From Paraburkholderia sp. (GTDB taxonomy: Bacteria > Pseudomonadota > Gammaproteobacteria > Burkholderiales > Burkholderiaceae): a stretch of DNA of 64,000 nucleotides. The position numbers were made by a program, and so were the translations under genes. The notes beneath the pieces were generated by a model, which saw only the letters and a list, made by a program, of their open reading frames with translations, was not told the DNA's origin and did no database searches. The stretch is taken from NCBI RefSeq assembly GCF_024281035.1, contig NZ_JAMXLH010000032.1:30764-94763 (forward strand). Direction: 5' to 3'. Positions 1 to 13,078 of the stretch are shown in pieces; position 1 is the first letter of the stretch; every line of letters begins with the position of its first letter.

Positions 1-949
1 GCATCAGCGCAACGAGTTCGCGCAACTCGGCGAGCGTGCCGACGTAGCTGCCTTCGATACGCAGCGGGCGCATCGGGATGATCGGCAAGGCCAGCGTAAT
101 GTCGCCGCCCATCAGGCCCACGATCACCACATGTCCGCCGCGCGCGCATGAATCGAGCGCAAGCGAAACGGTCGACGTCGAGCCGACCAGATCAAGCACG
201 GCGCGCGCGCCGCAGGTTCCGCCCACGGCCTCGACAATCTGCGTCGCGGCGTCGGGCGCGCGTGCGTCGATGGCGGCGAGCGCGCCTTCCTTCAACGCGG
301 CTTCGCGCTTGTCCGCATCGATATCGACCACAATCGCGCCCTTGCCGCCCAGCGCCTTGATGACCTCGATGGCCATGAGCCCGAGACCGCCCGCGCCGAT
401 CACGACGACCGGCGTTTCATGAATGCGGTCGCCGAACTTCTTGATAGCGGAATACGTGGTGACGCCCGCGCAGGCAAGCGGTGCGGCTTTGACGGGGTCG
501 AGCCCGCCGAGATCGACCAGATAGCGCGGGTGCGGCACGATCACGTACTCGGCGAAGCCGCCCGCGCGCATGACGCCGAGCGATTGCGGCCTCACGCAGA
601 TATTCTCTTCGCCGCGCAGGCAGGCCGGGCATGCGCCGCAACCGATCCACGGATGCACGACGGCGATCATGCCGGTTTGCACGGGGCCCGCATCGGGGCC
701 CGCGGAGATGACCTCGCCGCTGATCTCATGGCTGGGCGTGAGCGGCAGCTTGATGCCGCGGTCGGCGAGCGAGAGTTTTTTGCCGCCGCCGAGGTCGTAG
801 TAACCCTCCCAGATATGCAGATCCGAGTGGCACAGGCCCGCCGCCTTCACGCGCACGAGGACTTCGGTGCCCTGGGGTTGCGGGATGTCCTGGTGAATCA
901 GTTCGAGCGGCTGGCCGTGGCCAGTGACGCAAAAGCAGCGCATCTGCAT
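1..949 (-). CDS. Zn-dependent alcohol dehydrogenase (MDR family), 3' end runs off the window
   Basis: Manual translation from ATG at 949: MQMRCFCVTGHGQPLE...GLCHSDLH...SHE(ISGEV)...CGACPAC...EENIC...GAGGLG. Catalytic and structural Zn ligands and the Rossmann motif are present. Confidence 0.92.
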   Translation of the reverse strand, partial: MQMRCFCVTGHGQPLELIHQDIPQPQGTEVLVRVKAAGLCHSDLHIWEGYYDLGGGKKLSLADRGIKLPLTPSHEISGEVISAGPDAGPVQTGMIAVVHPWIGCGACPACLRGEENICVRPQSLGVMRAGGFAEYVIVPHPRYLVDLGGLDPVKAAPLACAGVTTYSAIKKFGDRIHETPVVVIGAGGLGLMAIEVIKALGGKGAIVVDIDADKREAALKEGALAAIDARAPDAATQIVEAVGGTCGARAVLDLVGSTSTVSLALDSCARGGHVVIVGLMGGDITLALPIIPMRPLRIEGSYVGTLAELRELVALM

Positions 950-1160
950 CGATATCTCCGTGAATGAAAGTAGGACGGTTCAGCGATGAGGAAAGCGATG
1001 ACCAATTCTCCGCATCATAGCGGATCGCTCGTGCGTGGGGGCAGGGTGGTTTGATTCGGGTCGTGAAGCCTTGTCGTGAACCCGTGATGTGAACTCGTTT
1101 AGCGAATTCTTGTTGTGAACTGGTGTTGTGAATACCAGGGTGCGCTGCAGGGCGCGCGGA

Positions 1161-1772
1161 CTAGCGTGCCTTGCTGCGCGCGCTCTTCCTGCCGCCGGCC
1201 GTGCGCGGCGGCTCCTTGCTGGCAACCGCGTCGGCGATGCCTGGCTGCTCCATCCAGGACAGCGCGTCCACGTAGGTAAGAAAATGCTGGAGATAACCCG
1301 GCGAAAGCTCGCGCATCAACGAAAGCGCCCGATGCACGAGGCTGCTGGAATTGAGTGGTCCGGCGTTTTGCGGAACCTGTACGAGCGACTGGCGCAACTG
1401 GCTTTCCGTGCGCACGGTGGCCCAGGTTCGGCGGAAGTAGTCGAGCATTTCGGGCGTAGACGGCCGCACGCGGCCGTTCGCCGGATCGTTCATCAGGTCG
1501 GCCAGTTCGCGCAACGGGCCAGGAGCGGGCGCGCGGTCCTTCGGCGCCACGGCAGATACGGCGTCGCCAAAGGATGCCGAATTTTGCGCAATCTGTTGCG
1601 CAATCAGTTCGGATAACGTGGCATTCAGTAATTCGCGTGCTGTGCCGCTTTGACTTGCCGCACGCCGCTCCAGCGCCTCGATGAAGCGGGCGCGTACGGG
1701 ATCGAGCCGCGCCGCGCCGCGCTGTGCCTCGTTCGGCATCGCTTCGTTAGCGTCTTTAGCGTCGTTATTCAC
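1161..1772 (-). CDS. zorG: DUF2894-family protein, putative Zorya type III ZorG
   Basis: Contains RRTWATVRTESQLRQSLVQVPQNAGPLNSSSLVHRALSLMRELSPGYLQHFLTYVDALSW, typical of DUF2894. The GTG start at 1772 overlaps the stop of the upstream OmpA/MotB gene. Confidence 0.75.
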   Translation of the reverse strand: MNNDAKDANEAMPNEAQRGAARLDPVRARFIEALERRAASQSGTARELLNATLSELIAQQIAQNSASFGDAVSAVAPKDRAPAPGPLRELADLMNDPANGRVRPSTPEMLDYFRRTWATVRTESQLRQSLVQVPQNAGPLNSSSLVHRALSLMRELSPGYLQHFLTYVDALSWMEQPGIADAVASKEPPRTAGGRKSARSKAR

Positions 1773-2424
1773 CGCGCTCACCACCGGAAGCCGTCGATCG
1801 CGGGACCGGCGCGATCTCCACGCGCCGGTTCTTCGCCCGTCCAACGGCGTCCGCGTTCGAACTCACCGGCTGCTCGGAGCCGAACGCCGCCGCAAACACG
1901 GACGAGGCGGGCACGCCTTCCTCGATGAGCGCGCGCGTCACCGTCAACGCGCGCTGCGCCGACAATTCCCAGTTATCGGCAAAGCGGTGATTGCCTGCGT
2001 GCACCTGCTGGTCGTCGGCGAAGCCGCTCACCATCAGGGTCTCGTCGCGCGCTTTCAGGTAAGCGGCAAGCGGTCCCGCCAGGCTCTTGAGCAGTGCGCG
2101 GCCCTCGGGCTGCAACTGGTCGGAGTTCAGGGCGAACAACACGTTGCCGCTAATGCCGATGCGCCCGTTGACGAGCGTGACCCGGCCCGACGCGAGCGGC
2201 CCCGCCAGCGCCTGTTCGAGTGTCTTGCGCCGCTGCGTTTCGAGCTGGCGCTGCTTGATCTCGTGGTCGAGCTTCGTCGAGAGTTCGAGCTGCACGCCGA
2301 TCACCGCCACGAGAATCAGCACGAATGCGCCCAGCAGCGCCGACATCAGGTCGCTGAAAGCGGTCCAGATGGGCGTCGCAGGTTCGAAACCACCGTCGAT
2401 GCCGCCGTCGATGTCCTCGCTCAT
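1765..2424 (-). CDS. zorB: MotB-like membrane protein with OmpA peptidoglycan-binding domain, putative ZorB
   Basis: N-terminal TM with the conserved Asp (WTAFSDLMSALL) and an OmpA-like domain (GFADD...NWELSAQRA...NRRVEI). The start overlaps the stop of the upstream gene. Confidence 0.8.
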   Translation of the reverse strand: MSEDIDGGIDGGFEPATPIWTAFSDLMSALLGAFVLILVAVIGVQLELSTKLDHEIKQRQLETQRRKTLEQALAGPLASGRVTLVNGRIGISGNVLFALNSDQLQPEGRALLKSLAGPLAAYLKARDETLMVSGFADDQQVHAGNHRFADNWELSAQRALTVTRALIEEGVPASSVFAAAFGSEQPVSSNADAVGRAKNRRVEIAPVPRSTASGGERGE

Positions 2425-4517
2425 GCGGCTTCGGCTCCCGCCGCTGCGCGCCGCGCTGCAAGCTGCTGCAAGCCTTCCATGATCTGCTTTTGCGACAGCA
2501 TGCTGAGGTCGACGACTTCGCGCGCCTGCGCAACGTAGTACGCAAGCTGTTCGTCGCTGCGCGCGAGCGACTTGTCGAGCGCGCCTTCGATGCGTTGCAG
2601 TTGTTCGACGAGTTGCGCGTTCGAGTTGCCGAACGCCTGCACCGATGCGCCGAACGCGTCGCCGAGGCTCGCCACTTCAATGGCGCCGTGTGTGATCTGC
2701 GCGGCGATGCCGTCGAGCTTGTTCGTTTCGGATGTCACGCGATCCGTGAATTGCGCGCCGACGCGCTCGAAGAGTTCCGCCGACGTGCTGACGAGCGCGT
2801 CGATCGCGCCACGCTGTTGCGTGGAGGCGTGATTCACGGCGTTGAGCAGGGTTTCGAGCGTGGCGAGCAGGCGGCTGCGTTCTTCGAGCATCGCGGTATC
2901 GCGCACCATGCTTTCCGAGAGCTTCTGGCGCAGTTCGGCGATTACTTCAGCGGCGGCGCGCGGCGCTTCCGAGGCGGCTTCGACGAGCCGCGCGATCTCG
3001 GCGATGGTGTCGCGCGCCTGGGCCTGCGTTTGCGCGGCGATGGCGCTCGCGGTGCGCTCCAGCGTGTCGCAGATGGCCTGCTGCCGGGTCGCGTTCTGCA
3101 CGGCTGCGTCGTCCCAGCGTGCGTAGAGCGTCGCGCTCATCGAAGCGATGCTCTCGCGCCACGCGTCGAGCCGCGCCGCGTCTTGCGATACGAGCCCCGC
3201 CTGCAGCTGCGCGTGCGATGCATTCACGTCGTGCAGCAGCGCTGCCGCGTGCTGCTCGAATGTTGCGGCTGCAACGGACAGGGCCTGCCGATGGTCCGCG
3301 GCGAGTTGTTCGTTTGCGCGCGTCTGCTGCGAAAGCGCGGCGTTCCAGTTTTCGGCTGCCGTGCCCGCAGAACGGTCGAGGCGTGCGGCGACGCCGTCGA
3401 TCAGATCTGCGCAACGCGTTTCGAAGGTGGCCGCATAGCGCTCGAACGATGCGCGCAGATCGGTCGACAACGTTTCACTAGACTGGCGATGATCGGCAAG
3501 GGCTTCGCGCCAGAGCGCCGAAACGGTGGCCGCCGTGGTTTCGTGGCTTGTCGCGAGTCCGGCCATCTGCTGCTCGACGGCTTGCGTGACGGCAGCGTGC
3601 AGCGCGGCCGTTTCGGCCCTGACGTCTTGCACCATGCTTTCCACGGCCGGGCGGATCGCCGCGCCCGCGGCACGCGCGCTTTCGGCGGCGCCATCCTTGA
3701 ACGTGCGCGCGACGGATGCGGCGAGTTCCGCGTAGCTGGCTTCGACTTTGCCGAAAAACTGCTGCTGGCTGGCGATCTGCCGCTCGTTCAGTGCGAGGCT
3801 TTGCTGCTCGATGGCCTGCATCATCGCCTGAAGGCGATCCACGAGCACGGGCATGGCCTCGGCCTGGCGCTGTAGCAGCTGGAAGCTCGCTTCGCGCTGA
3901 TGCGCGTGCGAGAAAACACGCAAGGTCGTCGCGATTCGCGTGTCGAGTTGCTGGGCCGCATCGCTGCGCTGGCGGCGCACGAGTGCCGAGAGCAGCCCGA
4001 GCATGGCGGACGTGGCGACGCCGGCAATCGACGTCCCGAAGGCGAAGCCCAGCCCCTTGACCGGTGCGGCGAGCGAAGCGCGGATCGCGAGCGGATCGAC
4101 GGCGCTTTCCAGCGCCGCGCCCGTGCCCTTGAGCGTGGCGACCATGCCGAGCAGCGTGCCGAGCATCCCGAGCAGCACGAGCAGGCCCACCAGATACGGG
4201 GTCAGCGCAGGGCCGGGCAGGGCCACGCGCGCGCCTTCCACGCGCAGTCGCACCGGGCCGCGCAGGCCGGGGTCGATCCGTTCGAGCCAGGCGCCGAGCG
4301 TGGCGGGCGGCTCGGCAAGCGCGGTCACGGCGTGTTCGAGCGTGGTGGTCGCCTGCCGATAGCGCCACAGTTCGAGTGCGCCCGCGAAATAGCAGGCGCC
4401 GATCAGCAGCGTGACGGCGAGCGCCAGCGGATTCGTGCCGAGATAGCCGAAGGAGATCCAGCAGAGCGCCGCACAACCGGCGAGAAATACAACGAGGTCG
4501 AAACGAAATCGGGACAT
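2421..4517 (-). CDS. zorA: MotA/TolQ-like membrane protein with long helical tail (DUF802), putative ZorA
   Basis: N-terminal TMs with MotA-type motifs (LLGMLGTLLGM; AFGTSIAG) followed by about 500 aa of Ala/Gln/Glu-rich helical sequence; 698 aa total. Confidence 0.78.
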   Translation of the reverse strand: MSRFRFDLVVFLAGCAALCWISFGYLGTNPLALAVTLLIGACYFAGALELWRYRQATTTLEHAVTALAEPPATLGAWLERIDPGLRGPVRLRVEGARVALPGPALTPYLVGLLVLLGMLGTLLGMVATLKGTGAALESAVDPLAIRASLAAPVKGLGFAFGTSIAGVATSAMLGLLSALVRRQRSDAAQQLDTRIATTLRVFSHAHQREASFQLLQRQAEAMPVLVDRLQAMMQAIEQQSLALNERQIASQQQFFGKVEASYAELAASVARTFKDGAAESARAAGAAIRPAVESMVQDVRAETAALHAAVTQAVEQQMAGLATSHETTAATVSALWREALADHRQSSETLSTDLRASFERYAATFETRCADLIDGVAARLDRSAGTAAENWNAALSQQTRANEQLAADHRQALSVAAATFEQHAAALLHDVNASHAQLQAGLVSQDAARLDAWRESIASMSATLYARWDDAAVQNATRQQAICDTLERTASAIAAQTQAQARDTIAEIARLVEAASEAPRAAAEVIAELRQKLSESMVRDTAMLEERSRLLATLETLLNAVNHASTQQRGAIDALVSTSAELFERVGAQFTDRVTSETNKLDGIAAQITHGAIEVASLGDAFGASVQAFGNSNAQLVEQLQRIEGALDKSLARSDEQLAYYVAQAREVVDLSMLSQKQIMEGLQQLAARRAAAGAEAA

Positions 4518-4529
4518 AAAACTATGGGG

Positions 4530-5282
4530 TTAGCGGGCGCGAAGGGCTGCGAGCAGTCCTTCCACCGGTTGAAACCGAACTTCGAGCTCGGCGAGCAATA
4601 CGCTCTGCCTGTCCTTGCAGAACCTGTCGAACCAGGCGCGAGGCGCGACGGCTTCCGGCTCGCCCGCGGCGTGTGCCGCGCGCAGCCGCTCGAAGTGCGC
4701 GCCGAGCAACGCAGGCACCGAAGCCAGCAGACTGCGCTCGCGCGCACCGAGAGAGCGCTCCATGATCGCGTCCACCGCCGCGAGGCGCGCGAGCGCGGGC
4801 GTCTTCGCCGCCAGCATCGCGCGCAGGCGGCCGCGCAACTGGCCGATCTCGGTTTCCAGGGTCTGCTGGATCGCGAGATGGCGCTGGCGATAGTCGCGGT
4901 AGTCGACCTGGTCGGCAGGTTCGTCCACCGGCGCAACGTGGGCTGTGCCACGCTCGCCACGCACGCCGCGCTGGACGGGCGCGGGCGCGTGCTCGCGGGC
5001 GATCACCTTCGTCAGCGCGCTGCGCACGCTCGTGCAAAGGTTTTTCGCCTCGTCGTCGCCGGACGCGCGTGCGCCCGCCGCACCCGCCGTGCCTGTCGCG
5101 ACGGTTGGCGGCTGTCCGCTCAGCGCCGTGGACAGTGCGATGGCATCGGTCCAGACGAGCCACTGGCTCAGGCGGTCCGAGAGCGACTGCGGCGGTTCGG
5201 CGAAGTCGGCGTCGGCCAGTTGCGCGAGCAGGCGTACGAGCGTTGGTCCGCTCAGCGCCGGTCGCCGGGGGGCTTGCACCAT
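4530..5282 (-). CDS. zorF: DUF3348-family protein, putative Zorya type III ZorF
   Basis: Contains LSGPTLVRLLAQLADAD...SDRLSQWLVWTDAIALS and FCKDRQSVLLAELEVRFQPVEGLLAAL, typical of DUF3348. First gene of the four-gene operon. Confidence 0.72.
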   Translation of the reverse strand: MVQAPRRPALSGPTLVRLLAQLADADFAEPPQSLSDRLSQWLVWTDAIALSTALSGQPPTVATGTAGAAGARASGDDEAKNLCTSVRSALTKVIAREHAPAPVQRGVRGERGTAHVAPVDEPADQVDYRDYRQRHLAIQQTLETEIGQLRGRLRAMLAAKTPALARLAAVDAIMERSLGARERSLLASVPALLGAHFERLRAAHAAGEPEAVAPRAWFDRFCKDRQSVLLAELEVRFQPVEGLLAALRAR

Positions 5283-5386
5283 GCTGCGAGAAGCAAAAAA
5301 GGCAGCAGTTTACACGCTGGCGCGGTTCGGGCTCTGAGAGCCTCATCGGCGGAGGTGGCGGCCGGGGGATTTTGGCGGTTCGGGCA

Positions 5387-5460
5387 GCGTGTTTTGAGCG
5401 CGCGAAACAGCGATCAAGCAGCGCAAAAAAGCAGCGCAAAAAGCAACGCTCAAAACACGC
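5387..5460. repeat. 14-bp perfect inverted repeat (GCGTGTTTTGAGCG / CGCTCAAAACACGC) with a 46-nt spacer containing short tandem repeats
   Basis: Arms read directly at 5387-5400 and 5447-5460. Confidence 0.85.
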
Positions 5461-5521
5461 CGGGATGGGCGCGATACAGGGCGATGCAAGGCGATACAAG
5501 GCCGCGCAGGGCCGCGCCGCC

Positions 5522-7516
5522 TCAGCCTTTCTCGCGCCGCTGTTCCATCGCGCGTGCGAACGCATCGAACCAGGCGAGCGTCTCGGGGTTGGCCATCGTC
5601 CCTGGATTGGCGACCTTGTCGAGCGGCTGCCCGAGCAGCAGCTTCTTGATGGGCAGTTCCATCTTCTTGCCGGAGAGCGTGCGGGGCACGCCGGGCGCCT
5701 GAAACACCTCGTTTGGGACGTGCCGCGCGGAGAGCGCGACCTTGATGCGCTCGCGGATCGCCGCCGTCAATTCCGGCGTCAGCACATGATCGGGCCGCAG
5801 CACGACGAAGAGCGGCATATACGACTCGCGGCCCAGGTATTCGAGGTCCACGACGAGGCTGTCGAGCACCTCGGGAAGATCTTCCACGGCGCGATAAAGC
5901 TCGCTCGTCCCCATGCGGATGCCGTGGCGATTGATGGTCGCGTCGGAGCGGCCGTAGATGACCGCGCCGCCGTGCGCGGTGATGCGCACCCAGTCGCCGT
6001 GACGCCACACGCCCGGCCAGACGTCGAAATAGCTGTCGCGATAGCGCGTGTCGTTCGCGTCGTTCCAGAAGCGCAGCGGCATCGACGGCATCGGGGCCGT
6101 GCAGACCAGTTCGCCGACTTCGCCGATGAGCGGCTTGCCCGTGTCGTCGAATGCCTCGACGCGCGCGCCGAGGCAGCGGCACTGCATTTCGCCGAGCCGC
6201 ACCGGCAGCGTCGGCAAGCCCGCCAGGAAGCATCCGGCGAAATCGGTGCCGCCGGAAATCGCGTCGATCCACACGTCGCCGACATGGTCGAGAATCCACC
6301 GGTACGCTTCCGGCGGCAGCGGCGAGCCGGTCGCGCCGACCGCGCGCAGGCGGGACAGATCGGCTTGCTGGCGCGGCTCGATTCCCGCCTTCAGGCACGA
6401 CTGATAGAACGCGGAGCCCGCGCCGAAGAAGTCGACCCGCGCGTCGCCGATGAAACGCCACAGGGCGCCGAGGTCGGGATAGCCGGGGCTGCCGTCGTAG
6501 AGGCACAAGGTTGCGCCCGCAAGCAGGCCGCCCACCTGGCAGTTCCACATGATCCAGCCGGTGCTGGAATACCAGTTGTAGCGGTCGCCGGGGCGCAGGT
6601 CGAAATGCAGCGCCGCGATCTTCACCTGCTCCAGCACGATGCCGCCGTGCGAGTGGACGATCGGCTTGGGCAGCCCGGTCGTGCCCGACGAATAGACGAT
6701 CCACAGCGGGTGATCGAACGGCAGCGACTCGGTTTCGAGTGTCGCATCGCCCGCAATGGCCTCGGCCCAGGCGACGCCGTGCGGGAATTCTGCGGCATTC
6801 GCCTGCACGTCGAGATTCGGCACGAGCACGACGTGGTGCACGCTCGGCAGCTCGTCGAGGAGTTCGTGCAGCAGCGCGCGGCGGTCGTACGGCTTGCCCG
6901 CGTACCGGTAGCCGTCGACGGCGATCATCACCGCGGGCTCGATCTGGCGGAAGCGGTCGAGCACCGCGAGGCGGCCCATGTCGGGCGAGCACACCGACCA
7001 GATTGCGCCCACGCTGGCGGTGGCCAGGAACGCGACGACGGTCTGCGCGATGTTGGGCATGAATGCCGCCACGCGGTCGCCGCGCTGCACGCCCATGCCG
7101 CGCAGCGTCGCCGCGAGCGCGCCCACCTGGCGCTCCAGTTCGGCCCAGCTCATTTCGCCGTCCTCACCCGCCTCGTTGCGGTGAACGATGGCGGGCCGCG
7201 CGGACGTCGCGTAACGGAACGCCTGCTCGACGTAGTTCAGCTGCACGCCGGGAAACCAGCGCGCGCCGGGCATCGCGGCACCGGCGAGCGCCTGGCCGCG
7301 CGGCGTATCGGAGGCAATGCCGGCCCAGTCCCAGATCGCCGACCAGAAAGCGTCGATGTCGTCGACGGACCAGCGCCAGAGTGCGTCGTAATCGTCGAAG
7401 CAAAGGCCGCGCTCGCGCGCGAGCCAGTGCATGAATTCGGTGATGCGCGCATTCGCGACGGTTTCGGGCGACGGCGCCCAGGCGATCGGTGCGTTGGCTT
7501 CGGTGGACGGACTCAC
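5522..7516 (-). CDS. Acetoacetate-CoA ligase (AMP-forming acyl-CoA synthetase)
   Basis: Contains YSSGTTGLPKPIVHSHGG, WYSSTGWIMWN, SGGTD and WRHGDW...GRSDATINRHGIRMG. GTG at 7516 is the likely start; the longest ORF begins at 7579. Confidence 0.9.
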   Translation of the reverse strand: MSPSTEANAPIAWAPSPETVANARITEFMHWLARERGLCFDDYDALWRWSVDDIDAFWSAIWDWAGIASDTPRGQALAGAAMPGARWFPGVQLNYVEQAFRYATSARPAIVHRNEAGEDGEMSWAELERQVGALAATLRGMGVQRGDRVAAFMPNIAQTVVAFLATASVGAIWSVCSPDMGRLAVLDRFRQIEPAVMIAVDGYRYAGKPYDRRALLHELLDELPSVHHVVLVPNLDVQANAAEFPHGVAWAEAIAGDATLETESLPFDHPLWIVYSSGTTGLPKPIVHSHGGIVLEQVKIAALHFDLRPGDRYNWYSSTGWIMWNCQVGGLLAGATLCLYDGSPGYPDLGALWRFIGDARVDFFGAGSAFYQSCLKAGIEPRQQADLSRLRAVGATGSPLPPEAYRWILDHVGDVWIDAISGGTDFAGCFLAGLPTLPVRLGEMQCRCLGARVEAFDDTGKPLIGEVGELVCTAPMPSMPLRFWNDANDTRYRDSYFDVWPGVWRHGDWVRITAHGGAVIYGRSDATINRHGIRMGTSELYRAVEDLPEVLDSLVVDLEYLGRESYMPLFVVLRPDHVLTPELTAAIRERIKVALSARHVPNEVFQAPGVPRTLSGKKMELPIKKLLLGQPLDKVANPGTMANPETLAWFDAFARAMEQRREKG

Positions 7517-7786
7517 GTTTTCGGTTTCCCTGCGGTTGCGAATGGGGCGGCGTTCAGTCACGGGCGCGCTCAATGGCATTGGGTACCATTTTTTGCGCCC
7601 GGCCCGCCACCCGGTTAAACGCCGAGATCGCTCGTGCCGCGTGGTTTGTCGCGTGTGGTTGCGTAATTGTTTGCGTGCCTGGTTGCGTGCTTTATCGCCG
7701 TTTTTTCCGCTTTTTTCCGTTTTTTCCGCCTTTTACCGTTTATTGGGGCGGGGACGTGGTGCGCGAAATGGGGCTATGCTTGGCAA

Positions 7787-8203
7787 ATGTTCGATCAGTG
7801 TCTCTACTTCAACACCGCGGCGCTGGCGCGGCGGCTGGAACGCGAGTGGTCCGGTGCGTTCGAGCCCTTCGACCTCACACCGCCCCAGGCTTTCATGCTG
7901 CGCGCCGTGCTGGATCGTCCGCACGTGCTTCAGCACGAACTCGCGGATCTGCTTGCAATCGCGCGGCCCACGGCGACGCGGGTGCTCGACGGCCTCGAAG
8001 CGCGCGGCTACGTGGAGCGCCAACGCACCGAAGGCGACGGCCGTGAAGTGGCGATCGTGCCGACGGCCAAGGCGCTTGCCATTCGCGAGGCACTCAATGG
8101 CGCCAGCGCGGCCGTGACCGGCCGGATCAAGCGCACGTTGGGTGGCGAGGCGTTCGTGGCGACCGTCGCGCGTTTGCGCACGGCGCGCGCGACGCTGGGC
8201 TGA
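7787..8203 (+). CDS. MarR-family transcriptional regulator
   Basis: MFDQCLYFNTAALARRLEREW...LTPPQAFML...ATRVLDGLEARGYVER, a winged-helix pattern. Confidence 0.88.
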   Translation: MFDQCLYFNTAALARRLEREWSGAFEPFDLTPPQAFMLRAVLDRPHVLQHELADLLAIARPTATRVLDGLEARGYVERQRTEGDGREVAIVPTAKALAIREALNGASAAVTGRIKRTLGGEAFVATVARLRTARATLG

Positions 8204-8546
8204 TCCGGCAGGGCGCCTTACCGCATTACAAGTATTCGGTCTGGAGTTTCAACATGCGGCGCATCGGCGCTTTTTTCGTTTCGAGCTGGCTTGCAGCCGC
8301 CGTTCTTTTCCTTGGCCGGCATTCGGTGCCGATGATCGCGCTGAGCGGCGTGATCGCGTTTGCGGGTTTTGACATCTTTCGTCCCGACCGTTCCTGACCG
8401 TTCCTGATTGTTTGTGCGGGCGCAAGACGCCCAACCGCTGCCACGCTCGCGGTTTCCAGGGTGGGTTTCCAGGCTGATTTTGCAAGGCTGTTGCGTGTGC
8501 CGTTAGACTTCACGCTTCGCCCACAGCCAGCCCGCATGCCGCGGGC

Positions 8547-9881
8547 ATGCCGATGACCGACGCTCTGCTTCCCGTCATGACCGATACGCCCGCGCAACTT
8601 CGCGAGGCGGCGCAACGCGCGCGCACCGCGGGCGACGAACTGGCCGCGCTCGCGCATCTGATTGCGGCAGAGGCGCTCGACGCGCGCGCGTCGGGTACCG
8701 GATCGGACGGCGCCGCGCGTGTCTGCATGGTGGCCACGGGCTACTTCATGAAGGGCGATCACGCGCGCGCGCAACGCTGGTACGAACTCGCGCTCGATCT
8801 CGATGTGGCCCAGGCCGCGGCCTGGCAGAATCTCGCGGCCATTCACGCGCAGGCGGGACGCGCCGGTGCCGCGCAACGTTGCCGCGACCGCGCCTATGCG
8901 CTGCAACGCGTCTATGTGGAAGCGTCGGGCGAGCCGGTGCGCCGGGTGTTGCTGTTGTGCGCGGGGCGCTCGGCGGGCAATGTGCCGTTCGATCTGCTCG
9001 TGCCGACGCCGCGCAATGCGCGCATCAAATACGCCCTCGATTACGCGCAGCCGCAAGAAGACGCGAGCCTGCCGCCAGCCGATCTTGCATTCAACGCAAT
9101 CGGAGACCCGGATATAGCCGAGCCGCTGCATGCGCGCGTGACGCAATTCGCTCACGCGTTCGCACATCCGTTTCTGAATACGCCCGAACGTGTGGCGGCG
9201 ACGCGGCGCGACCGGCTTCCCGCGTTGCTGCATGGCCTGCAAGACGTGCACACCGCCGCTTGCATCCGCATCGAAGCGGCGGATGAAAATAAACACGACC
9301 AGGTCCACGCACGCATCGACGCTGCCGGGCTCGCCTTGCCGCTGCTCGTGCGCCCGGTCGCCACGCACGGCGGCGAAGGCCTGGTGCGCTGCGACACGCG
9401 TGCCGAACTCGACGCGGCGCTGGCCGCGCAATCCGGCCCGTTCTACGTCAGCGCGTTTCACGACACGCGTGACGCAGACGGCTCATGCCGCAAGTACCGC
9501 ATGGCTTTCGTCGACCGCAGGCCGTATCCGTACCATCTCGCGATTTCGCCGTACTGGATGGTGCATTACTTCTCGGCGGGCATGGAGGGCGTGCGCTGGA
9601 AGCTCGATGAAGAGGCTCGCTTCCTCGCCGAACCCGCCGCGACGCTTGGCACGCGCGGCGCGGCTGCGATTGCCGCCATCGGACAGCGGCTCGATCTCGA
9701 CTACGCGGGGGTGGATTTCACGCTGCTGCCTGACGGCAGCGTGTTCGTGTTCGAAGCGAACGCGACGATGCTCGTGCATCGCGAGCGCCATGACGGCGAA
9801 CTCGCGCACAAGAATCCTTACGTGCAGCGCATTTCGGACGCGTTCGAGGCGATGATGGACGCGCGCGTGCGCGCGGCCTGA
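8547..9881 (+). CDS. TPR + ATP-grasp (RimK/glutathione synthetase-like) protein
   Basis: N-terminal TPR-like helices (AQRWYELAL...AWQNLA) and a C-terminal ATP-grasp (LLVRPVATHGGEGL; KYRM; LDYAGVDF...VFEANATM). Confidence 0.75.
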   Translation: MPMTDALLPVMTDTPAQLREAAQRARTAGDELAALAHLIAAEALDARASGTGSDGAARVCMVATGYFMKGDHARAQRWYELALDLDVAQAAAWQNLAAIHAQAGRAGAAQRCRDRAYALQRVYVEASGEPVRRVLLLCAGRSAGNVPFDLLVPTPRNARIKYALDYAQPQEDASLPPADLAFNAIGDPDIAEPLHARVTQFAHAFAHPFLNTPERVAATRRDRLPALLHGLQDVHTAACIRIEAADENKHDQVHARIDAAGLALPLLVRPVATHGGEGLVRCDTRAELDAALAAQSGPFYVSAFHDTRDADGSCRKYRMAFVDRRPYPYHLAISPYWMVHYFSAGMEGVRWKLDEEARFLAEPAATLGTRGAAAIAAIGQRLDLDYAGVDFTLLPDGSVFVFEANATMLVHRERHDGELAHKNPYVQRISDAFEAMMDARVRAA

Positions 9882-9882
9882 A

Positions 9883-9959
9883 GTGCGTGGATAGTGCGTG
9901 GATAGTGCGTGGATAGTGCGCGGATAGTGCGTAGATAGTGCGTAGATAGTGTGGGGATC
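9883..9959. repeat. 11-bp tandem repeat GTGCGT(G/A)GATA, 6 full copies plus 1 degenerate
   Basis: Read directly. No unique spacers between units. A second 11-bp repeat (GATCCGCTAGC) follows at 9977-10009. Confidence 0.95.
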
Positions 9960-10021
9960 GCGCGTGGTTCGTGCTTGATCCGCTAGCGATCCGCTAGCGA
10001 TCCGCGCGCGATCCTGCAGGA

Positions 10022-11497
10022 TCAGACTTCCTCGGGCCAGGACATGCCTTCGCGCGCGAGCAGCGCCGACGAAGCAGCGGGACCGTACGTGCCTGCCGTG
10101 TAGGTGCGCGGCCGGTCGCCGAGCTGCTCCCAGCCGTTGAGAATCGGCTCCACCCACGTCCACGCCGCTTCGAGTTCGTCGCGGCGCATGAAGTGCGTGA
10201 GGCGGCCGCGGACCACGTCGATCAGCAGGCGCTCATAAGCTTCGGCGCGGCGCTCGGGAATTGCCTGCTGCAGATCGAGGTTCAGGTTCACGGGCAGGAT
10301 GTTCATGCCGCTGCCCGGTTCCTTCGCGAGCATCTGCAACTGGATCGACTCTTCGGGCTGAAGCTGGATCACGAGGCGGTTGCCGTAATTGCGCGGGCCG
10401 CTCGGGAAGATCGAGAACGGCAGATCCGCGAATTCGATGACGATCTCCGACTGGCGCTTTTGCATGCGCTTGCCCGTGCGCAGGAAGAACGGCACGTTGG
10501 CCCAGCGCCAGTTATTGATGTGCGCGCGCAGCGCGACGAAGGTCTCCGCGCGGCTGCCGGGCGGCACGTTGTCCTCTTCGAGATAACCAATCACCGGCTG
10601 GCCGTCCACGGCGCCCGCCGCGTATTGGCCGCGCACGGTGTCGCGCGCGATATCGGCGACCGACATCGGGCGCAACGAACGCAGCACCTTGAGTTTTTCG
10701 TCGCGCACGGCGTCCGGGTCGAGCGAGACGGGCGGTTCCATCGCGACGATGCAGAGCAGTTGCAGCAGATGGTTCTGCACCATGTCGCGCAGCGCGCCGG
10801 TGTGGTCGTAAAAACCGGCGCGGCTGCCCACGCCGACGGTCTCCGCCACCGTGATCTGCACGCTGCGGATGTACGGCGCCTGCCACAGCGGTCCGAAAAT
10901 CGGATTGCCGAAGCGCAGCACCATCAGGTTCTGCACCGTCTCCTTTCCCAGATAGTGGTCGATGCGGTAGATCTGCGATTCCGCGAAATGGCGGCCCACC
11001 GATTCGTTGATCTCTTTCGCCGACGCGAGATCGTGACCCAGCGGTTTTTCGAGCACGACGCGCGAACGTTCGTCCACGAGCGACGCCGACGAGAGGTTGT
11101 CGCAGATCGTCGTGAAGAGTTCGGGCGAGGTCGAGAGGTAGAACACGCGCAGCGCGTCCGCGCGCGAGGCTTCACGCAGATGCGCATAGTCCGCGGGCGC
11201 GTTCACGTCGATGATCACGTACTTGAACAGGCCGAGGAAGCGGTCCCATGCCTCCTGATTGAACGCCTTGGCGTCGACGAACGGGCGCGACTGCTCGTCC
11301 ATGAACGCGTGGTATTCCTCGATCGTCCAGTTCTTGCGGCCCACCGCGATGATGCGCGTGTCGCGGGGCAGATTGTTGTGCAGATGCGCCATATAGAGCG
11401 CGGGCAGCAGCTTGCGCGCGGCCAGGTCGCCCCCGCCTCCGAAGATGATCATGTCGAGGGGCAGGTTGGGCACGGCTTGGACAGGCTGTTTCGTCAT
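10022..11497 (-). CDS. zwf: Glucose-6-phosphate 1-dehydrogenase
   Basis: Contains IFGGGGDLAARKLLPALY, RIDHYLGKETVQN and PFFLRTGKRM. Confidence 0.97.
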   Translation of the reverse strand: MTKQPVQAVPNLPLDMIIFGGGGDLAARKLLPALYMAHLHNNLPRDTRIIAVGRKNWTIEEYHAFMDEQSRPFVDAKAFNQEAWDRFLGLFKYVIIDVNAPADYAHLREASRADALRVFYLSTSPELFTTICDNLSSASLVDERSRVVLEKPLGHDLASAKEINESVGRHFAESQIYRIDHYLGKETVQNLMVLRFGNPIFGPLWQAPYIRSVQITVAETVGVGSRAGFYDHTGALRDMVQNHLLQLLCIVAMEPPVSLDPDAVRDEKLKVLRSLRPMSVADIARDTVRGQYAAGAVDGQPVIGYLEEDNVPPGSRAETFVALRAHINNWRWANVPFFLRTGKRMQKRQSEIVIEFADLPFSIFPSGPRNYGNRLVIQLQPEESIQLQMLAKEPGSGMNILPVNLNLDLQQAIPERRAEAYERLLIDVVRGRLTHFMRRDELEAAWTWVEPILNGWEQLGDRPRTYTAGTYGPAASSALLAREGMSWPEEV

Positions 11498-11656
11498 GGC
11501 GGATTAAATTTGACGCATGGTGGCGCGCAGGTGGCGCACCGGTTTCGAAAAAGCCGCGTCGGACGGGCCACCGGACGGGCGACAGGGAGCGGCGAAAAGA
11601 ACTAATACTGCATGGTTTCCGGGGATTTTGCACGCGGACGGCATTCATGGAGCGCT

Positions 11657-11711
11657 GTTGGCACGCCGTTGGCACGCTGTTGGCATATCGCTGGCGCGCT
11701 GTTGGCGTATT
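11657..11711. repeat. 11-bp degenerate tandem repeat (GTTGGCACGCT-like), 5 copies
   Basis: Read directly in the zwf-mntH intergenic region. Confidence 0.85.
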
Positions 11712-11761
11712 GCGCGTGCATCGCCATCGCATCGCCATCGCATCGCCGGCGCGCGCCGTCG

Positions 11762-13078
11762 CTAGCCGAGCCCCGGCACCGTCACGCCAAAGGTATCGAG
11801 CAGCAAGACCACGTTGAGCGCGAGCACGGCCATGGCGCCCGCCACGGCGAACCCGGCCGTGAGCGGGCGATTGCGATACGGACCCATCACGTCGGCGCGG
11901 CTCGTGAACCAGACGAGCGCGGCCATCGGCACGGGCAGCGCGAGGCTCAGCACGACCTGGCTCGCGACGAGCGCCTCGGTGGCGTTCATGCCGAAGCCCA
12001 CCACCACGAAGCTCGGCACCATCGTCACGGCGCGGCGCAGCCACACCGGAATCTGGAAGCCGATGAAGCCCTGCATGATCATCTGCCCCGCCATCGTGCC
12101 GACGACCGAACTCGAGATGCCCGAGGCGATCAGCGAGACCAGAAAGATGCCCGCCGCGCTGGCGCCGAGGAGCGGCACGAGCGTGCGATAGGCCGACTCG
12201 ATTTCCGCCACGTCTGGGAAGCCCTGGTGAAACGCGCCCGACGCCGTGATGACCATCGCCATGTTGATGAGCCCGGCGATGGAGAGCGCGATCACGACCT
12301 CGATATTGGAGAAACGCAATAGCCGCGTGCGCTCGATCTCGTTGCGCGGCGCGACGCGCGCCTGGGTCAGGCCGGAATGCAGGAAGAGGGCGTGCGGCAT
12401 GACCGTCGCGCCGATGATGCCGACGGCGATCATCACGGCCGGCGCGTCGGGCAGGCTCGGGGTGAAGGTATGGCGCAGGACGCTCGGCCATTCGATCGGC
12501 GCGATGAAGAGTTCGAGCAGATAACAGAACCCGATGATGCCGACGAGCGCGCCGATCACGAGTTCGAGCGGCCTGAAGCCCGTGCGCTCGAAGAGCAGCA
12601 GCCCATAGGTCACGACGGCGGTAATGGCCATGCCGGCAATGAGCGGGAGGTGGAAGAGCAGCGAGAACCCGATTGCGCCGCCGAGGAATTCGGCCAGATC
12701 GGTCGCCATGGCCGCGATTTCGCTTACGACCCACATCGCCCAGACAACCGGCGCGGGGAAGCGTTCGCGGCACAGTTCGGCGAGATTGCGTCCCGTGACG
12801 ATGCCGAGCCTGGCCGAGAGCGACTGGAACAGCATCGCCACGATGTTGGCAAGCAGCACCACCCAGAGGAGCGCGTAGCCATAGCGCGCGCCCGCCTGAA
12901 TATTGGTGGCGAAGTTGCCCGGATCCATGTACGCCACCGACACCACGACGGCCGGACCGGCGAGCGGCAGCATCAGCGCGGCGCCGCTGCGGCGCCCTTC
13001 GAGCGCCTCCCGCACGGCGGTAATGGTGCGCTTCGTCAGACCGTCGTGCACGGGTTCGTCGCGGGTGCGATGGTGCAT
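11762..13078 (-). CDS. mntH: Nramp-family divalent metal transporter
   Basis: Contains AYMDPGNFATN, GATVMPHALFLHS and SQVVLS. The ATG at 13078 has a GAGGAG RBS. Confidence 0.95.
   Translation of the reverse strand: MHHRTRDEPVHDGLTKRTITAVREALEGRRSGAALMLPLAGPAVVVSVAYMDPGNFATNIQAGARYGYALLWVVLLANIVAMLFQSLSARLGIVTGRNLAELCRERFPAPVVWAMWVVSEIAAMATDLAEFLGGAIGFSLLFHLPLIAGMAITAVVTYGLLLFERTGFRPLELVIGALVGIIGFCYLLELFIAPIEWPSVLRHTFTPSLPDAPAVMIAVGIIGATVMPHALFLHSGLTQARVAPRNEIERTRLLRFSNIEVVIALSIAGLINMAMVITASGAFHQGFPDVAEIESAYRTLVPLLGASAAGIFLVSLIASGISSSVVGTMAGQMIMQGFIGFQIPVWLRRAVTMVPSFVVVGFGMNATEALVASQVVLSLALPVPMAALVWFTSRADVMGPYRNRPLTAGFAVAGAMAVLALNVVLLLDTFGVTVPGLG

Follow-up and report, generated by a model that had tools for sequence, protein, structure and literature searches.

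A Zorya type III operon predicted on a Paraburkholderia chromosome and its core-like inheritance in the Burkholderiaceae

Zorya type III and the Paraburkholderia locus

Type III Zorya was described by Payne et al. (2021, NAR; PMC8565338) as a zorAB pair flanked by genes for a DUF3348 and a DUF2894 protein, and 6,401 such systems were counted, against 7,742 for types I and II together. The system of Stenotrophomonas nitritireducens DSM 12575 was tested in the same work by expression in E. coli BL21-AI: plaquing was significantly reduced for at least one of the five phages tested, and culture collapse was prevented at low multiplicity of infection. Both mechanistic papers on Zorya cover types I and II only; they deal with the E. 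coli type I system ZorABCD (PDB 8qyd; Hu et al. 2024, PMC11946911) and with the type II system ZorABE (Mariano et al. 2025, PMC11890865, the source of 8vvn, a ZorAB structure). In the remaining papers type III appears in lists or in accounts of transcript changes after infection, and expression of type III genes was found to change on phage infection in S. maltophilia and B. cenocepacia. Here we analyse a four-gene cassette of this kind in a window of 64,000 nucleotides (positions 30764-94763 of contig NZ_JAMXLH010000032.1) from the 5.59 Mb genome of a Paraburkholderia strain. An earlier reading of the bare sequence (the original prediction) had called the cassette Zorya type III-like and had held the mechanism of type III to be unresolved; we likewise found no mechanistic study resolving it in the literature searched.

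The cassette consists of four open reading frames (ORFs) on the minus strand between positions 1161 and 5282, in the order DUF3348 gene, zorA3, zorB3, DUF2894 gene. All four predicted proteins match the Zorya type III models of PADLOC-DB, with E-values from 0 to 1e-65. ZorA3 is matched over residues 1-698 of its 698-position model (E = 0) and ZorB3 over positions 5-210 of 215 (6.5e-115), and the values for the DUF3348 and DUF2894 proteins are 2.7e-90 and 1.7e-65, respectively. The ORF map and the junctions display the canonical same-strand type III order: zorA and zorB overlap in an ATGA, and the stop codon of the DUF3348 gene is separated from the ATG of zorA by 12 nt. This order, DUF3348-zorA-zorB-DUF2894, is constant wherever the four genes were recovered, which is the case in the large majority of 80 related loci.

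Judged by these matches, the locus is a complete, canonical Zorya type III anti-phage operon on a Paraburkholderia chromosome. The coupled four-gene operon that had been proposed is borne out by the ORF map, the Pfam assignments and the two junctions. The original prediction had also named the comparison with hidden Markov models (HMMs) as the point at which the type III identity could fail, and all four proteins passed the PADLOC check; as a canonical member of the type, the locus would not need the qualifier '-like'. With the system of Payne et al. it shares the same four families, order and strand, with full-length HMM matches and no structural difference. Its novelty is therefore low, since it is an ordinary instance, one more copy of a system that has already been catalogued and tested against phages.

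The names of the two helper genes differ between sources. The original prediction used ZorF for the DUF3348 protein and ZorG for the DUF2894 protein, in agreement with the text of Payne et al. (2021). PADLOC-DB v2 reverses both labels (DUF2894 = ZorF3, DUF3348 = ZorG3; models PDLC00652-00658), and Hu et al. (2024, PMC11946911) write the type III order both as zorFABG and as zorGABF. We therefore refer to the two proteins by their domain families.

The comparison with types I and II reveals shared motor features and different partners. Like those systems, the locus encodes a ZorB with an N-terminal motif carrying the essential Asp and a peptidoglycan-binding domain, and a ZorA whose membrane head is followed by a long helical tail, comparable to theirs in length and near-hendecad in periodicity; the sequence similarity of ZorA3 to ZorA1 and ZorA2 is weak. 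Unlike types I and II, it has no adjacent ZorC (EH_Signature), ZorD (helicase/nuclease) or ZorE (HNH), and its partners are two helical proteins without an enzyme fold. The absence of such genes next to the operon had been predicted and holds: neither direct neighbour matches any of the PADLOC models, and the EH_Signature domain (PF15611) is absent from the whole genome of the studied strain.

Type III relatives in the Lysobacteraceae share 60-62% identity with the ZorA and 73-81% identity with the ZorB of this locus. The comparison covered these relatives; the tested strain of S. nitritireducens probably belongs to the same family.

The predicted motor, its tail and the putative helical partners

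ZorB3 was assigned to the NCBIfam family NF006547 with 385.6 bits, well over the cut-off of 194. Its OmpA-like domain (PF00691, 2.5e-19) covers residues 96-200, the NRRVE motif included, and retrieves MotB and PomB structures from the PDB with E-values down to 2e-14. Near the N-terminus, Asp25 lies in the motif WTAFSDLMS and aligns with Asp26 of the E. coli protein EcZorB (8qyd_F) and with the matching Asp of 8vvn_B. In the E. coli type I system, ZorB carrying the D26N substitution is non-functional (Hu et al. 2024, PMC11946911).

ZorA3 contains two DUF802 stretches (PF05650, 4.7e-24) and is 95% identical to the ZorA of P. denitrificans. Hydrophobic segments at residues 4-28, 30-51, 98-131 and 158-180 make up a four-segment membrane head. 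Among the other PADLOC models, ZorA2 (2.8e-6, residues 114-314) and ZorA1 (2.3e-4, residues 93-176) give weak cross-matches. Pfam MotA_ExbB has no match in ZorA3; a ZorA3 profile searched against the PDB retrieved coiled-coil noise only, the solved ZorA not being among the matches, and phmmer with ZorA3 returned nothing. In tail and Asp the two proteins agree with the original prediction, which had described a MotA-like protein with a helical tail of about 500 residues and a MotB/OmpA protein with an Asp at position 25: the tail measures 498 residues and has a hydrophobic period of 3.63, and the Asp aligns with the solved ZorB chains.

The length of ZorA3 varies from approximately 650 to 1229 residues among the relatives, and that of the tail from approximately 500 to 1030. 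The copy studied here is of the short tail form (698 aa), as against 765-1229 aa for the ZorA of many relatives. The extra length stems from independent tandem duplications with periods of 33, 51, 62, 87, 131 and 160 residues (seen in loci L019, L020, L022, L025, L031, L035, L045, L053, L067, L070 and L082), underneath which lies an old periodicity of 55 residues that we take to be the DUF802 repeat. Measured independently, the hydrophobicity of the tail peaks at a period of 3.63-3.64 residues in all nine of the proteins analysed. At 3.64 residues per turn, periods of 33, 51, 55, 62, 87, 131 and 160 residues correspond to 9.1, 14.0, 15.1, 17.0, 23.9, 36.0 and 44.0 turns. Every duplication period thus amounts to whole turns, and therefore the tail behaves as a continuous, near-hendecad coiled coil in which the register has been kept. 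A period of 3.63-3.64 fits the 11-residue (hendecad) repeat expected for a right-handed coiled coil, which is the form reported for EcZorA (Hu et al. 2024, PMC11946911). If each residue adds 0.15 nm, the tail of 498 residues would span about 75 nm. A correlation of ZorA length with the lengths of the helper proteins (Spearman 0.58 and 0.45) was rejected: it is driven by differences between genera and is gone within genera.

The DUF3348 gene is the first of the operon and encodes a soluble, all-helical protein (PF11828, E = 6e-85, 285 bits against a cut-off of 25). Its AlphaFold2 model contains eight helices, with a predicted local distance difference test score (pLDDT) of 84 and a predicted template modelling score (pTM) of 0.80. 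The DUF2894 protein, searched as the longest ORF (1161-1844), matches PF11445 with E = 2.6e-49 (169 bits, cut-off again 25), and its model is likewise all helical and less confident (pLDDT 74, pTM 0.35). Both models agree with the helical nature that had been predicted for ZorF and ZorG. Relatives point to the GTG at 1781 as the most likely start of the DUF2894 gene, giving a 17-nt overlap with zorB; the alternative is the ATG at 1739, and the TTG at 1844, which opens the longest ORF, is unlikely.

Alignments of 39 DUF3348 and 41 DUF2894 proteins from related loci were inspected for conserved positions. In DUF3348, Leu, Trp and Phe account for most of the invariant positions, with a few Arg, Asp, Glu and Gln, and in DUF2894 an invariant NAGPLN ... 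SPxY core is found together with a C-terminal tail that is basic and conserved. Neither set has an invariant His or Cys. Foldseek searches of the PDB with the two models returned nothing at E < 0.1; generic helical bundles (the MxA stalk, ClyA/AhlC, designed bundles and PsaF) were set aside, each with E > 0.3. Profile searches of the PDB with the two families produced coiled-coil noise and nothing meaningful, PHROGs and NCBIfam contained no match for either protein, and hhalign revealed no relationship among DUF3348, DUF2894 and ZorA3 (every probability < 1%).

A possible effector was also sought in fusions and in neighbouring genes. Searched against a collection of 5.8 billion proteins, the DUF3348 profile hit at least 2,170 significant clusters, and the best 120 matches listed are all single-domain DUF3348 proteins, with no fusion among them. 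When every ORF lying up to 4 kb from the cassette was clustered across the related loci examined, no gene family proved to be shared between genera. Neither an enzyme fold nor a catalytic motif was thus detected in the helper proteins; no enzyme can be recognised in the cassette, and in the related loci it is not accompanied by an effector gene.

Distribution, inheritance and surroundings of the cassette

The cassette is present in almost all members of the genus. A ZorA3 homologue was found in 35 of 36 other species genomes, and with two samples combined the cassette, recognised by ZorA3 or DUF3348, occurs in 52 of the 58 other species. Laboratory strains with a native cassette include P. phytofirmans PsJN, P. 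xenovorans LB400 and Cupriavidus necator H16. In the Burkholderiaceae as a whole, 197 of 301 species genomes encode DUF3348, nearly always in one copy, and many of those listed as lacking it are small genomes (0.2-2.5 Mb). As a control, the type I marker ZorC (EH_Signature) was found in only 19 of 300 of the same family genomes, scattered over 11 genera, and in one of the 20 genomes listed for the genus. Type III is thus near-core in the family, whereas the type I marker is patchy.

A tree of the ZorA head and ZorB from 67 loci tracks taxonomy, with 11 label changes against a minimum of 10 and a mean of 31.9 after shuffling, and all 26 Achromobacter loci form one monophyletic group. The one clear exception is a Lysobacteraceae clade nested in the Burkholderiaceae clade (support 95). 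The nested position points to one ancient transfer between classes, the history being vertical apart from it. The nested gammaproteobacterial cassettes, of Lysobacteraceae and relatives, are loci L021, L024, L026, L027 and L028.

Within the syntenic subclade, five pairwise comparisons were made, with P. denitrificans, P. dinghuensis, P. adhaesiva, P. acidipaludis and strain B3. For the four more distant species, the zor genes have a synonymous divergence (dS) of 0.41-1.0, against 0.36-0.75 for the flanking metabolic genes, and the ranges overlap. The ratio of nonsynonymous to synonymous divergence (dN/dS) is 0.04-0.12 for ZorB, 0.18-0.30 for ZorA, 0.22-0.46 for DUF3348 and 0.24-0.40 for DUF2894, and purifying selection acts on all four. 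The P. unamae lineage has its cassette on the opposite side of the same block of genes, which runs from glucose-6-phosphate dehydrogenase (G6PD) to DAHP synthase, and there the alcohol dehydrogenase gene abuts the G6PD gene; the cassette has therefore moved at least once.

No ZorA3 match was found in 50,697 phage records. The 166 plasmid matches listed lie on replicons of 0.37-3.5 Mb, nearly all of them large secondary replicons, and all but two of the records shown measure at least 1.5 Mb. Ralstonia solanacearum-complex megaplasmids account for 135 of the 166, often with similar coordinates in related strains, which hints at conservation within the species. The marks of an accessory, mobile defence system, namely patchy occurrence, an island or mobile context and an incongruent phylogeny, are not those of this cassette; in the Burkholderiaceae it behaves, in its inheritance, almost like a core or housekeeping operon.

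The positions of the four genes and of a conserved element upstream of them are collected in Table 1.

Table 1. Genes of the cassette and its conserved upstream element, with positions in the window
Feature	Positions	Strand	Family, model or basis
DUF3348 gene, 250 aa (ZorF in Payne 2021; ZorG3 in PADLOC-DB)	4530-5282	minus	PF11828, PDLC00658
zorA3, 698 aa: head residues 1-180 (3978-4517), tail residues 200-698 (2424-3920)	2421-4517	minus	PDLC00649
zorB3, 219 aa: N-terminal transmembrane helix with Asp25 (codon 2350-2352), OmpA-like domain (1825-2139)	1765-2424	minus	PDLC00651
DUF2894 gene, ~206 aa (ZorG in Payne 2021; ZorF3 in PADLOC-DB)	1161-1781	minus	PF11445, PDLC00652
Conserved element just 5' of the DUF3348 start: CAGCGTGTAAACTGCTG then CCTTTTTT; hairpin 5303-5319	5283-5330	minus	five-species alignment

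According to Pfam and NCBIfam, the neighbouring genes encode a zinc alcohol dehydrogenase, an acetoacetate-CoA ligase, G6PD, a YncE-like propeller, a fatty-acid hydroxylase, DAHP synthase and a transporter of the major facilitator superfamily. These metabolic neighbours confirm that the locus is placed in a housekeeping setting and not in a defence island. The host-like GC content that had been reported with it is roughly right: the operon has 67.9%, close to the 68.4% of the adjacent ligase gene and above the 63.5% of the genome. Rfam matched nothing in positions 1-12000 of the window.

About 40 nt of the upstream element are nearly invariant across five Paraburkholderia species, and the remaining intergenic DNA has diverged. 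The element was flagged as terminator-like in a pattern scan. It probably represents a promoter or leader signal of the operon, and could also be an attenuator. A promoter scan found no sigma-70 consensus promoter upstream of the operon, and no Shine-Dalgarno-like sequence is evident 5' of the ATG of the DUF3348 gene.

Further features were observed in the flanking DNA. Between the ligase gene and the operon, the intergenic DNA (5387-5510) contains short tandem repeats of 10 and 13 nt and a perfect inverted repeat of 14 nt (5387-5400 and 5447-5460). P. denitrificans is the only species of the alignment to share these repeats, the inverted one with a single mismatch. On the other side, between the stop of the DUF2894 gene and the start of the alcohol dehydrogenase gene, the minus strand carries five spaced copies of TTCACRAC in positions 950-1160 (GTTCACAACA, GTTCACATCA, GTTCACGACA and similar), which look like regulator-binding sites for the dehydrogenase gene. 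The plus strand encodes at 8547-9881 a protein of 444 aa without a Pfam family and with weak NCBIfam matches only, of the tetratricopeptide repeat-like kind; it is conserved at 77-94% identity in the syntenic subclade. The interval between the dehydrogenase and G6PD genes lacks this gene, the ligase gene and the cassette in the P. unamae lineage.

Proposed function and alternative readings

By analogy with types I and II, we expect with a probability of about 0.72 that the locus is a working type III Zorya defence system that acts through a motor and its partners. ZorA5B2 would form a proton-driven rotary motor, which would anchor to the peptidoglycan when a phage perturbs the envelope, and the signal would then pass along the coiled-coil tail of some 75 nm. 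The DUF3348 and DUF2894 proteins might serve as soluble helical partners of the tail, in place of ZorC and ZorD or of ZorE. Since the helpers lack an enzyme fold and no effector gene travels along, the output is probably independent of a nuclease encoded in the cassette. Possible outputs would be the recruitment of host factors, a physical obstruction or DNA binding at the entry site, for which the basic C-terminal tail of DUF2894 is a candidate, and the gating of ion flow.

Several points weigh against a defence system of this design. The sole functional test of type III concerns one heterologous, induced system (PMC8565338), and the roles of the helper proteins are ones that we infer. The link of the ZorA3 head to the solved ZorA and to MotA is a weak one, through PADLOC cross-matches of 2.1e-8 and 2.8e-6. 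Moreover, the cassette is near-universal in the genus, vertically inherited, set among housekeeping genes and never found on small mobile elements, unlike accessory defence. These last observations lend themselves to a different reading, in which the cassette is mainly a housekeeping envelope device of the Burkholderiaceae, for instance a proton-driven unit that senses or transduces stress on the cell wall or envelope, and in which the phage protection by an over-expressed relative in E. coli would be a side effect or a secondary use. The usually single copy in most of the genus and family, next to a scarce type I marker, lends it real though indirect support, as do the congruent tree, the dS in the range of the flanking genes, the lack of phage matches and the large size of nearly all plasmid hosts. 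Nevertheless, we regard it as unlikely. Anti-phage activity has been published for a type III system (PMC8565338), and in two species type III transcripts respond when phages infect. Compared with the flanking genes, the helper proteins evolve at two to three times the rate, as expected of defence proteins. The cassette is also dispensable and not strictly fixed, because 6 of the 58 congeners lack it and it has changed place in the P. unamae lineage. A near-core, vertical distribution does not disprove a role in defence, with which vertical inheritance is compatible.

The remaining two explanations carry far less weight. That the cassette is a decaying or silent remnant without a current function would be in line with the lack of a sigma-70 consensus promoter, but none of its four frames is broken, dN/dS stays well below 1 in all five pairwise comparisons, the cassette is intact across several families and the conserved upstream element is present, so that decay is highly improbable. 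Still less credible is a mislabelled paralogue of a flagellar stator, of Tol-Pal, of ExbBD or of a gliding motor. The OmpA-like domain of ZorB is indeed common to MotB, PomB and TssL, and like MotAB/PomAB and ExbBD/TolQR the locus has a B subunit with an OmpA-like anchor and a conserved transmembrane Asp, and a multi-pass A subunit encoded directly upstream, the stop and start codons overlapping. However, ZorA3 and ZorB3 both fit the models specific to Zorya III far better than any others: the ZorB3 model scores 380 bits against at most 64 for the other ZorB models, and NF006547 outscores the MotB/MotD families, which reach at most 90 bits. Unlike those systems, the A subunit has no MotA_ExbB match and extends into a cytoplasmic coiled coil of 500 residues; this tail and the DUF3348 and DUF2894 partners are foreign to them, and the locus has no flagellar or Tol context.

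With the defence reading preferred, the locus adds one copy to the Zorya III class, which already counts more than 6,000 catalogued systems and is common yet without a recognisable effector. What is added here is that in the Burkholderiaceae type III is nearly universal, vertically inherited and without a travelling effector gene. For this family and its neighbours one could go as far as to propose, tentatively and at rather low odds, that canonical type III is a vertically inherited, near-core envelope motor, serving either in housekeeping or as a constitutive, 'built-in' immunity without a nuclease encoded in the cassette. The question is thereby sharpened: is this a Zorya motor that stops phages without a nuclease of its own, or one with an everyday role in the envelope? 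Its near-core inheritance in the Burkholderiaceae makes the class worth a targeted experiment.

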